A DNA stretch of 64,000 bases, taken from positions 11,972 through 75,971 of the forward strand of contig DATKRZ010000103.1 of assembly GCA_035531955.1 (NCBI GenBank), in the 5' to 3' direction. Under the pieces are notes generated by a model, which saw nothing but the letters and a program-made list of their open reading frames with translations, did not search any database and was not told the DNA's origin. Shown here in pieces: positions 2,885-61,216 of this stretch. Source of the stretch: Acidimicrobiales bacterium (GTDB lineage Bacteria > Actinomycetota > Acidimicrobiia > Acidimicrobiales > RAAP-2). Position numbers and translations under genes: made by a program. Every line of letters starts with the position of its first letter. The stretch's first letter is position 1.

Positions 2885-4084
2885 TCAGGGCAGGCGCTCG
2901 ATCACCATGGCGTTGGACTGGCCTCCCCCTTCACACATCGTCTGGAACCCGTAGCGGCCGCCGACCGCCTCGAGCCGGCTCAGCAGCGACGCGGCCAGGC
3001 GCACCCCGGATGCCCCCAGCGGGTGGCCCATCGCGATGGCGCCCCCGTGGGGGTTGAACACCTCGGGGTCGGGACCGAAGGCACGGGACCACATCAGCGC
3101 GATGGCGGCGAAGGCCTCGTTGCACTCGATGGCATCGAAGTCCCCGACCTTCATCCCCGACCGGTCGAGCAGTCGGTGGGTCACCGGCACCGGGGCGGAC
3201 AGGACGATGGCGGCGTCCTCGGCGGCCACTGCGAAATGGGCGAACCGGGCCCGGATGGGCAACCCGAGGCGCTCGGCCACCGATCGTTCAGCCACCAGCA
3301 TGGCCGCGGCGCCGTCGGTCATCTGGGAGGCGTTCCCGGCGGTGATGTCGGGCGCAGTCTCGGGCTCCCAGGACTGGGCCGGGGGCAGGCCGGCCAATGA
3401 TTCCATCGATCCTCCCCGGCGGATGCCCTCGTCGACGGCGAGCTTCAGCCCGGTGAGCGACCCGTCCTCGGCCTTGGTCGGAACCGGAACGACCTCGCGG
3501 GCGAGAGCGTCGGTGTCCCACGCCGCAGCCGCCCGGCGATGGCTCTCGAGCGAATAGGCGTCCATGTCCCGGCGCGAGATCCCGTAGCGGTCGGCCAGCA
3601 CCTGGGCCACCCGGAACTGGGCCCACAGCCGCCCGTCGATGGCCGAGAGGAAGGACGGAGGGAACGGCCCGGTTCCCCCGCGGGCGTTGCTCGCCATCGG
3701 CACCCGGCTCATCGACTCGACGCCGCAAGCCACTACCAGGTCGTAGTGGCCGGCCACCACGCCGGCGGCGGCAAAGTGCATCGCCTGCTGGGACGACCCG
3801 CACTGCCGGTCCACCGTGGTGGCCGGGACGTGCTGGGGCAGCCCGGCCGACACCCAGGCGTTCCGGGTCACATTGGTGCTCTGCTCCCCGACCTGGGCGA
3901 CGCACCCGCCGATGACGTCGTCGATGGTCGCCGGGTCGACCGCGGTCCGGTCGAGCAGGGAGGAGATGGCGAAGGCGAGCAGGTCGGCAGGGTGCCAGTG
4001 CTGGAGTGCGCCACCCCGCTTGCCGAACGCGGTCCGCACCACGTCGACGACGACCGCGTCGCGGCCTCCGGTGACCGTGCTCAT
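2885..4084 (-). CDS. acetyl-CoA C-acyltransferase (degradative thiolase)
   Basis: Nucleophile context DRQCGSSQQAM, NEAFAA, GHPLGASG, CEGGGQ. 399-aa ORF with ATG at 4084. Confidence 0.92.
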   Translation of the reverse strand: MSTVTGGRDAVVVDVVRTAFGKRGGALQHWHPADLLAFAISSLLDRTAVDPATIDDVIGGCVAQVGEQSTNVTRNAWVSAGLPQHVPATTVDRQCGSSQQAMHFAAAGVVAGHYDLVVACGVESMSRVPMASNARGGTGPFPPSFLSAIDGRLWAQFRVAQVLADRYGISRRDMDAYSLESHRRAAAAWDTDALAREVVPVPTKAEDGSLTGLKLAVDEGIRRGGSMESLAGLPPAQSWEPETAPDITAGNASQMTDGAAAMLVAERSVAERLGLPIRARFAHFAVAAEDAAIVLSAPVPVTHRLLDRSGMKVGDFDAIECNEAFAAIALMWSRAFGPDPEVFNPHGGAIAMGHPLGASGVRLAASLLSRLEAVGGRYGFQTMCEGGGQSNAMVIERLP

Positions 4085-4140
4085 GACTGCTGGCTCATGA
4101 CGGTTGGCTCATGACGGCTGGGCTCATCCTGGTTCCTCCC
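4081..4140 (-). promoter_or_regulatory. SD plus two ATGA-chained mini-ORFs (MSPAVMSQPS 4095-4127; MSQQS 4081-4098) built from a 14/15-nt tandem repeat and ending on the thiolase ATG
   Basis: Minus strand reads GGGAGGAA CCAGG ATGAGCCCAGCCGTCATGAGCCAACCGTCATGAGCCAGCAGTCATGAGCACG. The unit GTCATGAGCC occurs 4 times. The thiolase ATG has no SD of its own. Confidence 0.55.
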
Positions 4141-28036: not shown

Positions 28037-28291
28037 ATGGCACCACATCCAGCCCACTCCACGTGGTCGCTGTGGTCGGAGAATTCGGTCTTGTCGATCG
28101 GCAGTCGCGGATCCTTCATGTCAATCGGCTCGATCGGTTCGGCACTCTCGATCGGCTCGGTCGGGTCGTTCCTCTCAGCCTTCTCGATCGGCTCCTTCGG
28201 CTCGGTCGGGTCGGTGCTCTCGGCCGGCTCCCGATCCTCGGTCATGTCATCGAGGTCGCGCAGGGCGATCATGAAGGCCGGACCGGGATAG
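28037..28291 (+). CDS. 84-aa serine-periodic micro-protein, (Ser-X-X)x23
   Basis: MAPHPAH then STW SLW SEN SVL SIG SRG SFM SIG SIG SAL SIG SVG SFL SAF SIG SFG SVG SVL SAG SRS SVM SSR SRR, then AIMKAGPG. The Ser periodicity holds across TCN and AGT codons. The ORF is cleanly bounded, with a low-GC patch and a TAAGAA -10-like box just upstream. The antisense frame is an alternative (see findings). Confidence 0.5.
   Translation: MAPHPAHSTWSLWSENSVLSIGSRGSFMSIGSIGSALSIGSVGSFLSAFSIGSFGSVGSVLSAGSRSSVMSSRSRRAIMKAGPG
28058..28264. repeat. imperfect 9-bp-periodic tandem repeat (core TCGATCGGC, several exact copies)
   Basis: TCGATCGG recurs at about 28094, 28131, 28149 and 28185, with related TCAATCGGC and TCGGTCGGG units. 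The period is a multiple of 3. Confidence 0.7.
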
Positions 28292-34491: not shown

Positions 34492-35538
34492 CTACCCCTC
34501 GGCGATCTCATCGATGAGCCCCCAGTCACGTCCGGTGTCCGCGCCGATGAATCGACCGGTGAGGGCCAACCATCCGGTCCGGTGCCGCCCGATCCGTCTC
34601 GGGAGCGTCGCCGTGCCGCCGGCCCCGGGGATCAGCCCCATGGCCACCTCGGGGAGGCGGAGGCGGGTGTCCGAGCGGGCCACGACGCCGGCAGCCAGGG
34701 CGGGGAGCTCGACGCCCGCGCCGACACACGCCCCGTGGAGGTGGGCCACGGTCCGGTCCCTGACGACGGCCAGCAACCGGGCCGCGCTGCGCGAGGTTCG
34801 GATCAGGTGGGCGGTGGCGGGGTCGGGGAGCGTGCCGAAATCGCTGAGGTCGCCCCCGCTGCTGAAGTCCGGTCCGCTCCCGTGCAGGTGTACCTCCCGG
34901 ACGGACGGGTCGGCGCACGCCACCGTCAGCGCCTCGCACAGCTCGTCGCGCATGGCTCCGTTGTAGGCGTTGCGGACCCGGGGTCGATCGAAGGTGATCG
35001 ACAGCCGGTCGCCGATCCGTTCGACCAAAAGGGAGGGGACCCCGGTCGGCGTCGTGGGCGTCGTCGGCGTGGCGGCCAGCCAGCGGGCGAACTCCGGTCC
35101 GCCCTGCAGCGTCGAATAGGCCAGGGACTCGAGGACCAGGTCGTGGTCGAGCGATTCGGAGCGGCCCGACCGGAGGACCTGAACCAAGGCGACCGACGCC
35201 ATCGGTGAGCGCTGCACCGCGACTGCCATGGCGTCCAACTCGGCGTCGAGATCGGCCACCGAGACCCAGGGGCGTGCCGACCGGTCCGCCTCGGTGATGG
35301 CGACGTCCACCCCGGACAGCCCCTCGCACGAGGCTCCGGTGCGGCTGATCCCGACGACCACCGACCCGAAGGCCGGGGGGATGTCGAGCCGGCCGGCCCG
35401 CGTGGGGCGGTCGAGGTCCACGACCAGCATCGGATCCCCCTCCAGCGTGCCGAGGATCTCCGCCGATCCCCCGCGCACCCGCTCGAACAGGTCGGCAAGG
35501 GCCGCTTCGTCGAGCAGGTCTGAACCGGAGGCCGGCAT
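34492..35538 (-). CDS. crotonase-fold protein with atypical domain order (degenerate/partial crotonase segment + TP-rich linker + crotonase core lacking C-terminal helices)
   Basis: C-terminal half: LLVERIGDRLSITFDRPRVRNAYN...HGSGPDFSSGGDL...HGACVGAGVELP...LPEVAMGLIPGAGGT, and it ends at GLIDEIAEG. N-terminal half ends with RSPMASVALVQVLR...ESLAYSTLQGGPEFARWLA. ATG at 35538. Confidence 0.8.
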   Translation of the reverse strand: MPASGSDLLDEAALADLFERVRGGSAEILGTLEGDPMLVVDLDRPTRAGRLDIPPAFGSVVVGISRTGASCEGLSGVDVAITEADRSARPWVSVADLDAELDAMAVAVQRSPMASVALVQVLRSGRSESLDHDLVLESLAYSTLQGGPEFARWLAATPTTPTTPTGVPSLLVERIGDRLSITFDRPRVRNAYNGAMRDELCEALTVACADPSVREVHLHGSGPDFSSGGDLSDFGTLPDPATAHLIRTSRSAARLLAVVRDRTVAHLHGACVGAGVELPALAAGVVARSDTRLRLPEVAMGLIPGAGGTATLPRRIGRHRTGWLALTGRFIGADTGRDWGLIDEIAEG

Positions 35539-37127: not shown

Positions 37128-38372
37128 TCAGCCGGTGGTGGCCGGTTCGAAGGCCACCTTCACCGCCCCGCTCTCCTCCTGGGTGGAGAGGGCGCGGAGG
37201 GCGTCGTGCCAATGGTCGAGCGGGAAGCGGTGGGTGAGCATGCCGGTGAGGTCCACCCGCCCCTCCTGTACGAAGTCGAGATAGTGGCGTATGGCGTGTT
37301 GGCGCACCCCCTCCACCTCCTCGATGCCGAAGGCGTTGGAGCCGACGATGGACAGTTCCTTGAAGTAGATGGGCGTGTACTCCCACCGCCCGGGAGTGTG
37401 CACCCCGGTCTGCACGAGGGAACCGCGCTCGGCGAGCACCCGGACACCGACTTCGAGGGTCTCGGGTCGGGCCACCGTGTCGTAGACCACGTCGATACCT
37501 CCGGGGTGGGCCATCGGTAGCCCGGCGAATGCGGTGTGCAGCACGCCCCCCGACCATTCGGCCAGGGACTCGATCAACTCCAACCTTGGCTCGTGGGGGA
37601 GCACCAGGCCGGCGCCGAACCTGGCGGCCAGGTCGGCCTGGGCGGGGAAGCGGGCCACCACCGCCACCTCCACTTCCGGGTACAGCGAATGCAGGATGGC
37701 GACGCTGGTCACCCCGAGCGCCCCAGCACCGTAGACGAGGGCGCGGCCATTCGGAGGCGGCGGGCAGCGGAGGATGGCGTGAAGTGACACGGCGAACGGA
37801 TCGGCCAGTACCGCCACCTCGTCGGTGACCGAATCGGGAACCGGAATGAGCATCGAGTCGTGGGCCGCCATCAGGTCGGCCCAGCCACCGGGCGCGTCAC
37901 TGGCCACTCCGACGTGGACTCCCGGACCGAGGGCACCGGTGGTGAAACTCCAGCACAGGTTCAGCTCGCCGCGTCGGCAGGCCGGGCACGGCGGATCCAC
38001 CCCACGGGGACCACACGTCAACCACGGATTGAGCAGTACCCGCTGGCCGACCTCGAGGCCCGAGGCATCCGGGCCGAGGCTCACCACCTCGGCTACCACC
38101 TCATGGCCGGGGATGTGGGGAATGGAGGAGAACGCGGCCATCGGATTGTCGATGTCGCCGGTGTCGAAGTCCCCCAGCACGAGCTTGGTCTCCGACCCGC
38201 ACACCCCGGAGAGAAGCGGCCGGGTGATGACCCAGTCTGGACGGACCATCCGGGCGTCATCGACCTCGTGCAGGCCGAAGGGGAGCGAGTCGATCCGGCG
38301 ATCGAGATCGTCGCCCGGACCCTCATGGGCGTCGTCGGCGTCGCGTGGCACGCCGAACACCAGTGCTCTCAT
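37128..38372 (-). CDS. zinc-binding medium-chain alcohol dehydrogenase family protein
   Basis: GHEVVAEVVSLG and the Cys cluster CPACRRGELNLC. 414-aa ORF with ATG at 38372. Confidence 0.88.
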   Translation of the reverse strand: MRALVFGVPRDADDAHEGPGDDLDRRIDSLPFGLHEVDDARMVRPDWVITRPLLSGVCGSETKLVLGDFDTGDIDNPMAAFSSIPHIPGHEVVAEVVSLGPDASGLEVGQRVLLNPWLTCGPRGVDPPCPACRRGELNLCWSFTTGALGPGVHVGVASDAPGGWADLMAAHDSMLIPVPDSVTDEVAVLADPFAVSLHAILRCPPPPNGRALVYGAGALGVTSVAILHSLYPEVEVAVVARFPAQADLAARFGAGLVLPHEPRLELIESLAEWSGGVLHTAFAGLPMAHPGGIDVVYDTVARPETLEVGVRVLAERGSLVQTGVHTPGRWEYTPIYFKELSIVGSNAFGIEEVEGVRQHAIRHYLDFVQEGRVDLTGMLTHRFPLDHWHDALRALSTQEESGAVKVAFEPATTG

Positions 38373-38428
38373 CGACGGCAGTTTCTCATCGGCGACACAG
38401 CTTCATCGGTGACACGGTAGCCACCTCC
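38369..38428 (-). promoter_or_regulatory. SD plus two ATGA-chained mini-ORFs ((V)SPMKLCRR 38386-38415; MRNCRR 38369-38389) built from a 17-nt tandem repeat and ending on the ADH ATG
   Basis: Minus strand reads GGAGG TGGCTACC GTGTCACCGATGAAGCTGTGTCGCCGATGAGAAACTGCCGTCGATGAGAGCACTG. Three CG(Y)CGATGA units are spaced 17 nt apart. The ADH ATG has no SD of its own. Confidence 0.55.
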
Positions 38429-60310: not shown

Positions 60311-61216
60311 ATGGGACTACTCGACACCCGGGTCGCCATCGTCACCGGTGCCGGGAGGGGCATCGGCCGCCGGGTGGCCCTGTGCCTGGCCGCGGAGGGG
60401 GCCAAGGTGGTGGTCAACGACATCGGGGTCGGCCTCGACGGTCGCAGCGGATCCGAGGGGGGCGGGGACGAGGGCCCGGCCGCCCAGGTCTGCCGGGAGA
60501 TCACCGCCTCGGGCGGGCAGGCGGTGGTCAGCCACGACTCGGTGAGCGACTACCAGGGAGCCGGACGGATCGTCGACACCGCCATCGATGCCTTCGGACA
60601 GGTGGACATCCTGGTCAACAACGCCGGCATTGTGCGCGACCGCTCGCTGCTCAAGATGACCGAGGACGACTACGACGCCGTCGTCGCCGTGCACCAGAAG
60701 GGCACCTTCAACACCACCCGGCATGCCGCACCCCACATGAAGGAGGCCGGGTACGGGCGCATCGTCAACATGACCTCGTCGGCCGGGCTGCGGGGGAACT
60801 TCGGACAGACCAACTACGGCGCGGCCAAGGCGGCCATCATGGGCATGACCTTCGTGTGGGCCGTCGAGCTCGGCAAGTACGGGATCACCGTCAACGCCCT
60901 GGCCCCGTCCGGAACCACCCGGATGACCGAGGGCCTGTACCAGGGGGCCGAGCCTCCGGCCAACGAGGATCCCGCCCTCAACGCGCCGATGGTGGCCTTC
61001 CTGGCCTCCGAGGCGGCGTCCTTCGTGAACGGACAGGTCCTGGGTCGGACCGGATACGGGTACACCTTGTTCCAGACGCCGCGCCAGATCGCCACCATGT
61101 GGCAGGAGGGCGGGTGGACCCCGTTGGAGGTGGCCGACCACTTCCACGAGGTCCTGGGCCAGCACCTGCAGCCGGTGGGCATGCCCAGCCATCCCCTGCT
61201 GGGCAAGCGGGACTGA
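60311..61216 (+). CDS. SDR oxidoreductase resembling the (3R)-hydroxyacyl-CoA dehydrogenase domain of MFE-2 type enzymes
   Basis: VAIVTGAGRGIGRRVA, NNAGIVRD, and NYGAAKAAIMGMT (YxxxK). ATG at 60311. Confidence 0.86.
   Translation: MGLLDTRVAIVTGAGRGIGRRVALCLAAEGAKVVVNDIGVGLDGRSGSEGGGDEGPAAQVCREITASGGQAVVSHDSVSDYQGAGRIVDTAIDAFGQVDILVNNAGIVRDRSLLKMTEDDYDAVVAVHQKGTFNTTRHAAPHMKEAGYGRIVNMTSSAGLRGNFGQTNYGAAKAAIMGMTFVWAVELGKYGITVNALAPSGTTRMTEGLYQGAEPPANEDPALNAPMVAFLASEAASFVNGQVLGRTGYGYTLFQTPRQIATMWQEGGWTPLEVADHFHEVLGQHLQPVGMPSHPLLGKRD

Follow-up and report, generated by a model that had tools for sequence, protein, structure and literature searches.

A ladder of very short open reading frames (ORFs) precedes the gene of a Zn-dependent alcohol dehydrogenase (ADH) in a stretch of 64,000 nucleotides (nt) from an Acidimicrobiales bacterium (assembly GCA_035531955.1, contig DATKRZ010000103.1, positions 11,972 to 75,971; G+C about 70%). 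This whole stretch is called the window in the following, and all features of the ladder lie on its minus strand. With a probability of about 0.6, we interpret the locus as an entry ramp to the ADH gene which is leaderless and translationally coupled and which was rebuilt by a small variable-number tandem repeat. RNA polymerase would use a TACCGT element (38419-38414) at the end of the upstream GMC oxidoreductase gene, and the A of ATG 38406 or a neighbouring base would be the first nucleotide of the transcript. A 70S ribosome would load on the 5'-terminal AUG 38406, translate MKLCRR and stop at a UGA overlapping AUG 38389, where it would re-initiate and translate MRNCRR. It would then stop at the UGA overlapping the ADH AUG 38372 and re-initiate again, thus feeding a start which has no Shine-Dalgarno (SD) sequence. 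Because the 17-nt repeat unit contains ATGA and 17 equals 2 modulo 3, each copy ends the previous ORF on its own start; slippage would therefore be harmless to coupling, as copies could be gained or lost while ADH stays connected to its source of ribosomes.

Geometry of the ladder

Three CGATGA motifs were found exactly 17 nt apart on the minus strand, with ATG at 38406, 38389 and 38372. Rereading of this strand showed that the coordinates and spacings given in a previous annotation made by a model from the letters alone (the sequence-only reading) were all correct. The ladder geometry is real: the TGA of each mini-ORF overlaps the next ATG, and the last ATG opens the ADH gene. The ADH ATG was also said to lack an SD sequence of its own, and no SD-like run was indeed present directly 5' of ATG 38372. 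This ATG is the real ADH start, since residue 1 was the start of the alignment in all 160 homologues fetched, unless they were cut by a contig end.

For a strict ladder, we required three ATGA at equal spacing, with each ORF stopping on the following ATGA and the last of them opening 100 codons or more. Two such ladders are present in the window, at 38406 with a period of 17 and at 4112, upstream of a thiolase gene, with a period of 14, as compared to 0.002 on average when 1000 windows were simulated by a second-order Markov model. The strict pattern exceeds chance because the ADH and thiolase ladders are both tandem repeats. A loose definition, in which two or more short ORFs are chained by NTGA up to an ORF with a length of 100 codons or more, did not reveal anything unusual (10 observed vs 6.25 per simulated window). 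It was dropped as uninformative; NTGA-linked chains of short ORFs are common in random high-GC sequence. The ADH ladder is the sole coupled short-ORF chain of the leaderless type in the window.

The 17-nt repeat and its copy-number alleles

Loci containing the ADH gene were gathered from genomes, metagenomes and exact-protein look-ups and are designated by L numbers. The consensus of the 17-nt unit in relatives is CCGTGTCACCGATGAAG; the copies in the window match it at 17/17 (38417-38401), 13/17 (38400-38384) and 9/17 (38383-38367) positions. The unit runs from inside the putative -10 element (CCGT) to codon 2, and the second unit of the window still reads ATGAGA, as the ADH start does. Tandem Repeats Finder (TRF) reported the 14-nt thiolase array but not the 17-nt array in the window, because the copies in the latter have diverged. 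The arrays of L001, L081, L082 and L168-L175 were aligned by eye; homology to the near-perfect arrays among them shows that the array of the window is a true tandem repeat. This agrees with the claim that a 17-nt repeat with a period of 2 modulo 3 builds the ladder. The unit was found nowhere else in the window or in 176 loci. A mobile repeat family was rejected on the grounds that the unit is not dispersed.

Eight distinct alleles with 1-6 mini-ORFs and 2-7 repeat copies were identified in near-identical Acidimicrobiales. One mini-ORF is present in L082/L083, and two are present in the window and, with a different unit sequence, in L173. Three were found in L081 and four in L001/L169-L171, in L168 (with one variant unit) and in L175 (made from five upstream units); L172 has six. 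Loci L168-L173 encode an identical ADH protein and originate from one JGI sample series, yet they carry 2, 4 or 6 mini-ORFs. An assembly artefact is unlikely because the identical array of three copies, with two mini-ORFs, is also present in three other assemblies of the population to which the window belongs.

The chain to the ADH ATG is unbroken in every allele (8/8). The junction spacing is 17 nt throughout except for one 15-nt unit in L175, which joins two mini-ORFs in frame, the fused ORF ending in TGATG; neither a 16- or 18-nt unit nor a lost ATGA was seen among the eight alleles. Eleven of the 13 non-ATGA positions vary among distinct units, and the mini-ORF peptides comprise MKPCHR, MNPCHR, MKQCHR, MKPFHR, MKPSRA, MKPCRS, MKLCRR and MRNCRR. 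Divergence is also seen in the last L081 unit and in the L175 units.

As three direct repeats separate a promoter-like element from the start of a gene, they might also constitute an operator array for a DNA-binding regulator. However, the copy number varies from 2 to 7 among near-identical strains, the 17-nt spacing is off helical phase and dyad symmetry is missing; furthermore, the sequence found here in other lineages that share the promoter is unrelated. An operator is thus extremely unlikely.

A conserved promoter motif and the entry point

Conservation at the orthologous position extends over 33 loci for the motif TKGC-TACCGT, followed by ATG or GTG; it can be written as T(G/T)GCTACCGT and the start codon is always located 6-8 nt later. 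TANNNT is the -10 consensus of actinobacteria, and TACCGT fits it. We infer that TACCGT is the -10 element of a promoter and that the mRNA probably begins at ATG 38406, which would be the true first start of a leaderless message. If so, GTG 38415 and the pentamer GGAGG lie outside of the transcript, GGAGG being part of the promoter spacer and perhaps in use solely on mRNA reading through from the GMC gene.

The sequence-only reading had proposed entry by an SD-led GTG 38415. The spacing of 8 nt between GGAGG and this GTG of the first mini-ORF was confirmed. Entry at the GTG was not upheld, since GGAGG is not conserved beyond the ladder subclade, where the element reads GGAGG, GGAGA or CGAGG/GAGG, whereas TKGC-TACCGT with its distance of 6-8 nt is. 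GGAGG is absent in L002-L008, L019 and L085, lineages which have the same architecture. With ATG 38406 as the most likely 5' end, the transcript would start inside the repeat, which was named in that reading as an outcome that would refute it.

Among the long ORFs of the window with high G+C content at third codon positions (GC3), the distance from TANNNT to the start codon is 5 nt once, 6 nt five times, 7 nt four times and 8 nt four times; each other spacing within 0-15 nt was found in 0 or 1 gene. As the TANNNT spacing peaks there, leaderless genes with a 6-8-nt geometry are presumably common in this organism, and they appear to account for about one quarter of the genes in the window. Leaderless transcripts are widespread in mycobacteria (PMC4633059).

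In total, 14 long ORFs with high GC3 have TANNNT 5-8 nt before ATG or GTG and leave no room for an SD sequence. They start at 60311, 40742, 48743, 51431, 53769 and 43596 on the plus strand and at 35538, 27047, 9301, 725, 48648, 43569, 40658 and 31652 on the minus strand.

Coupled upstream ORFs in relatives

The GMC gene is located directly upstream of the ADH gene, with a single upstream ORF (uORF) between them, in L002-L008, L019, L085 and L176. These uORFs (19, 19, 21, 21, 36, 39 and 48 codons) open at a start codon 7 nt after TACCGT and always end in a TGA overlapping the ADH ATG or GTG; their peptides are unrelated between lineages. At all CTACCGT loci with GMC directly upstream, a coupled uORF or chain begins at the start codon that follows TACCGT at a distance of 7 nt (L173: 8 nt), and L023, without the motif, also keeps a coupled uORF. 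Altogether, about eight unrelated types of uORF or chain (6-48 codons) were found, all coupled to the ADH start. With a free frame, these types would be expected by chance at roughly (1/3)^7, a value that treats lineages as independent which are not entirely so.

Repeats with preserved frame also occur inside uORFs: L006 contains CCGTGACTC about 7 times with a period of 9 (3851-3915, plus strand), and L008 a 12-nt CCGACCGCGCCN unit (about 3900-3975, plus strand). The spot between GMC and ADH genes seems to be prone to slippage in many lineages. It had been asked whether the peptides matter or only the geometry. Comparison of relatives provides an answer: frame and overlap are kept, peptides are not, which indicates that the geometry is constrained and the peptide sequence is not. 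Both mini-ORFs of the window end in CRR because the repeat units share descent.

Regulatory leader peptides which sense charged tRNA via Cys and Arg codons, including the rare AGA and CGA, and attenuate ADH would be another explanation. One Cys codon is present per mini-ORF, together with one or two for Arg, and Cys-rich leaderless uORFs have been proposed as attenuators in mycobacteria (PMC4633059). However, the single Cys per ORF is derived from the promoter-proximal sequence CCGTGTC, and the uORFs of L005, L019 and L085 have no Cys. Neither alternative hairpins nor a terminator were detected, an Rfam search of the locus did not match any family, and the RNA fold was not unusually stable (z = +1.25 as compared to shuffled sequence); furthermore, ADH is not connected to Cys or Arg metabolism. 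Such sensing is thus very unlikely. Assignment to the class of leader-peptide attenuators was rejected in the absence of a run of regulatory codons and of terminator and antiterminator hairpins.

A lost SDR gene as the source of the uORF

The gene order GMC-SDR-ADH was found in L009, L013-L015, L017, L018, L020-L022 and L028. The TGGCTACCGT motif recurs in L009-L022, where it precedes the SDR start by 6-7 nt. In most sister loci and in most distant loci, the stop codon of SDR overlaps the ADH start; in a few sister loci, SDR ends 2-25 nt upstream of it. The first approximately 10 codons of the uORF in L002-L004 align with the SDR N-terminus, MDEHGCIGLA (ATGGACGAGCACGGGTGCATCGGGCTGG) vs MDDKARIALV (ATGGATGACAAGGCACGCATCGCGCTGG). 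This comparison is based on a MAFFT alignment of the 5' ends, a global alignment with cheap gaps being meaningless here.

Because motif, N-terminus and coupled stop are shared, the uORF is the remnant of a deleted SDR gene. The putative promoter and leaderless start were originally those of SDR, which was deleted in the clade of the window while its start and coupled stop were kept. A kept uORF is expected if the SD-less ADH start needs ribosomes delivered from upstream. In the ladder subclade, 17-nt copies replace the SDR remnant.

In a distant ADH clade with about 75% identity and another upstream gene (L027, L098 and L100; L029 and L101), the TGA of a short uORF overlaps the ADH GTG, and the uORF is SD-led. 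There, AAGGAGGA-CACC-GTG opens a uORF of about 20-27 codons, and GGGGGAG + 6 nt + ATG opens one of six codons (MTGRIT).

In the family as a whole, coupling of the ADH start to something located upstream looks nearly universal.

Alternative routes to the ADH start

Several points weigh against a leaderless entry ramp. Promoter, leaderless start and re-initiation are all deduced from sequence, and the efficiency of serial re-initiation over two to six steps is assumed. A conserved -35 element was not seen across the aligned loci, and a scan for E. coli-type promoters gave no match. Whole-unit gain or loss keeps the chain intact for mutational reasons, and the copy series alone is hence no evidence of selection; such evidence would come from the diverged units and the non-repeat uORFs. 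Of the constrained ATGA positions in the window, only 4 do not depend on the ADH start itself; they are unsubstituted, which is weak evidence (p about 0.16 by hand count). The hexamer GAAACT, 7 nt before the ADH ATG, could give rise to a direct leaderless ADH transcript. Finally, the chance of GGAGG occurring 5-10 nt from a given start is about 0.017, and GTG 38415 is in frame with ATG 38406, so that either start feeds the same chain; an SD-led route may exist beside or instead of the leaderless one.

For this SD-led route, the GMC-ADH mRNA would be leadered or polycistronic, and canonical initiation at its GTG 38415 would yield (V)SPMKLCRR, followed by two re-initiations leading to ADH. The 8-nt spacing of GGAGG is ideal, GGAG or GAGG is present in all ladder alleles, and no terminator-like site was detected in a scan between the GMC and ADH genes. 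However, the SD is missing not only in L002-L008, L019 and L085 but also in the SDR-bearing L009-L022, which have the same coupled architecture. The GTG belongs to the conserved TACCGTG motif, and the spacing which is conserved is that from the motif to the downstream ATG or GTG. Furthermore, a 1-nt insertion in L173 shifts the GTG out of frame, whereas the TACCGT spacing remains in the leaderless range. We therefore consider an SD-led start at the GTG unlikely, and leaderless entry at ATG 38406 is preferred.

The repeat could also be a neutral scar of slippage, with ADH being initiated at its own AUG, either independently of an SD or from a minor transcript starting at 38372 with GAAACT as a weak -10 element. 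Unit-wise slippage retains the geometry without selection, the unit was not found elsewhere, and GAAACT has two key -10 positions at the proper distance; in addition, SD-less genes are many in actinobacteria (general knowledge; PMC4633059). On the other hand, frame and overlapping stop are kept in about eight unrelated uORF types and in diverged units. The only off-length unit (15 nt) preserves the frame, as do the uORF repeats of L006 and L008 with periods of 9 and 12, and the ADH start is stop-start coupled to SDR in most other members of the family. GAAACT matches the -10 consensus at A2 and T6 only and is missing from the other array alleles; it could be a minor internal transcript start of the window's allele only. 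A neutral scar thus appears quite improbable as compared to a coupled entry ramp under constraint. That copy number changes ADH output, each re-initiation being unlikely to be fully efficient, is speculative.

Other ladders and repeats

The thiolase ladder (4084-4127, minus strand) is a 14-nt tandem repeat with a TRF score of 75. GGAGGA is located 6 nt before its first ATG and a -10-like TAGTCT about 48 nt upstream; because of this close GGAGGA and distant TAGTCT, this ladder is SD-led and not leaderless. The array of the window consists of four units, the first of which has 15 nt and is in frame. Three units, with GTG as the last start, are present in L162, a relative with 93% identity, and the 88%-identical L163 and L164 have no units, a plain SD with ATG and another upstream gene. 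The two ladders had been described as independent, which holds: their repeat units are unrelated, and two further independent instances were found in relatives. In L028 (3058-3137, plus strand), five copies of ATGACGGAGATGTGGCC with a period of 17 follow right after the GMC stop and feed SDR; each unit has GGAG 8 nt before the next ATG, so that whole ribosome-binding sites are duplicated. In L009 (about 3165-3205, plus strand), the 20-nt GTCGCTCATGAAGGACGGGG is present twice at a leaderless SDR start. An ORF of seven codons (MKDGGRS) results from this duplication, and its TGA overlaps the ATG of SDR; L011 and L088, which are closely related to L009, do not have the duplication.

Start-codon micro-repeats with a period of 3n+2 and an ATGA in the unit might represent an evolvable translational rheostat in Acidimicrobiales which has arisen repeatedly (17 nt for ADH, 14 nt for thiolase, 17 and 20 nt for SDR). 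We regard this generalization as tentative and rather doubtful. If it were true, slippage would set the number of re-initiation steps (1-6 seen) and grade output with promoter and coding sequence untouched. The periods of all four ladders, 2 modulo 3, are biased by detection, as both the strict scan and the inspection by eye sought NTGA. A census of start-proximal repeats by period modulo 3 in about 1.1 Mb of loci gave 5, 3 and 5 and was dominated by low-complexity GTGG matches and redundant homologues.

Elsewhere in the window, at 28125-28231, TRF reported a 36-nt repeat (3 copies, 70% match), alternatively 11.8 copies of a 9-nt unit similar to TCGGCTCGG.

Organization of the locus

The features of the locus are listed in Table 1. 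On the minus strand, the GMC oxidoreductase gene, which ends with TGA 38448-38446, is followed by a gap of 73 nt and the ADH gene. The gap reads ccgtgccgaccgggctc, GGAGG, TGGC (38423-38420), TACCGT, GTCACCG and then mini-ORF 1; GTG 38415-38413 shares the last two bases of TACCGT. The start codon of mini-ORF 1 (38406-38404) lies 7 nt after TACCGT, and its TGA (38388-38386) overlaps ATG 38389-38387 of mini-ORF 2 (ATGA), the TGA of which (38371-38369) overlaps the ADH ATG 38372-38370. The closest relatives of the GMC and ADH genes belong to Acidimicrobiales metagenome-assembled genomes, and GMC lies upstream of ADH in all loci of the window's clade.

Table 1. Features of the GMC-ADH locus in the window.
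Feature	Position	Strand	Basis
GMC-family FAD oxidoreductase gene, 560 aa	38446..40128	-	ORF list, translation, Pfam GMC_oxred_N + GMC_oxred_C
GGAGG, SD-like pentamer 8 nt before GTG 38415	38424..38428	-	sequence
TGGC-TACCGT, inferred -10 element (TANNNT) with G at -14	38414..38423	-	conservation and spacing
Array of three diverged 17-nt copies	38367..38417	-	alignment by eye to arrays of relatives
Mini-ORF 1, ATG AAG CTG TGT CGC CGA TGA (MKLCRR)	38386..38406	-	sequence
Mini-ORF 2, ATG AGA AAC TGC CGT CGA TGA (MRNCRR)	38369..38389	-	sequence
GAAACT, weak -10-like hexamer 7 nt before ADH ATG	38380..38385	-	sequence
Zn-dependent alcohol dehydrogenase family gene, 414 aa (MRALVFGV...)	37128..38372	-	ADH_N + ADH_zinc_N domains

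A gene of an FGGY-family carbohydrate kinase on the opposite strand converges on the 3' end of the ADH gene (37128 and downstream), as is also the case in L165-L176. The combination of FGGY kinase, GMC, lost SDR and ADH suggests a cluster for sugar or polyol oxidation.

Comparison with known systems

In mycobacteria, leaderless small ORFs coupled by RTGA are over-represented, and their linkage is conserved whereas the peptide is not (Shell et al. 2015, PMC4633059). Their proposed role is to supply the downstream start with ribosomes (PMC4633059; reviewed in PMC12548453). The ADH locus resembles this class in having a 5-50-codon ORF with a TGA overlapping a downstream RTG and in the conservation of the coupling, but not of the peptide, in relatives (about eight types). 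The leaderless start of that class may have a counterpart here, as suggested by TACCGT 7 nt before ATG 38406, by the motif and spacing shared among 33 loci and by the equal TANNNT spacing of about 13 other genes in the window. Differences are the occurrence in Acidimicrobiales, the derivation of the uORF from a deleted SDR gene and, in the ladder subclade, a serial chain of 1-6 six-codon ORFs from a variable-number repeat; the ADH locus is known from sequence.

Mycobacterial interspersed repetitive units (MIRUs), e.g. in the senX3-regX3 intergenic region of M. tuberculosis, contain ORFs coupled at -4 nt (Supply et al. 1997, via PMC12548453), which is thought to make insertion harmless to the downstream gene (PMC12548453). 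In both systems, tandem units whose copy number varies lie between co-oriented genes, and the ORF of each unit is coupled at -4 nt. The MIRU unit sizes of 77 and 53 bp (PMC4213456) are, by our own arithmetic, equal to 2 modulo 3, like 17 and 14. However, MIRUs have 46-101 bp, are dispersed at many loci and apparently mobile, whereas the 17-nt unit is confined to one locus, was made from the start and promoter-proximal sequence of the gene itself and is unrelated to MIRUs in sequence. With 17 nt, the unit is about the shortest possible.

Variation in the copy number of promoter tandem repeats with 54-58-bp units occurs beside leaderless genes at lpdA and cysG of M. tuberculosis (PMC12817950). 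Copy-number polymorphism among close strains beside leaderless starts, proposed to tune expression at lpdA and cysG, is common to both cases. The lpdA and cysG units are located upstream and duplicate promoter elements, whereas the ADH unit is too short for a promoter and includes the start codon; if it acts at all, it would act at the level of translation. For M. tuberculosis, NUGA-overlapping uORF-ORF and uORF-uORF 'translational units' have been described and 70S termination-reinitiation was proposed (bioRxiv 10.1101/2022.06.01.494293). There as well, at least two ORFs are chained by 4-nt stop-start overlaps and downstream ORFs often have no SD, but these chains were not described as repeat-generated or variable in number.

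At contingency loci of Neisseria and Haemophilus, a change in repeat copy number switches a gene on or off via frame or promoter spacing. These loci share with the ADH locus slippage-prone repeats near the gene start and copy numbers which differ between close strains; a recent example of phase variation by simple sequence repeats is available (PMC12721329). In contrast to contingency loci, all copy numbers keep ADH connected, and any effect would be graded rather than a switch. The repeat is located downstream of the putative -10 element and its copy number leaves promoter spacing unchanged, which sets the locus apart from phase-variable ones. Coupling itself is known; a minimal, locally generated, hypervariable mini-ORF chain at a leaderless start in another actinobacterial class appears to be new.

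Implications

If the proposed mechanism is true, the alleles constitute a natural series from 0 (the inferred ancestor) to 6 serial re-initiations in front of a reporter-sized gene. This series could be used to measure the efficiency per step of termination-reinitiation on leaderless mRNA, which is still debated. For annotation, starts in Actinomycetota that have no SD may receive their ribosomes from unannotated mini-ORFs, and repeats of 14-20 nt at starts should not be taken for assembly noise. Duplications of a start region would be tolerated with a period of 0 modulo 3, or of 2 modulo 3 if the gene begins with ATGA. Furthermore, a gene which depends on coupling can apparently outlive its upstream partner, with the partner's promoter, first codons and overlapping stop being kept as a uORF.

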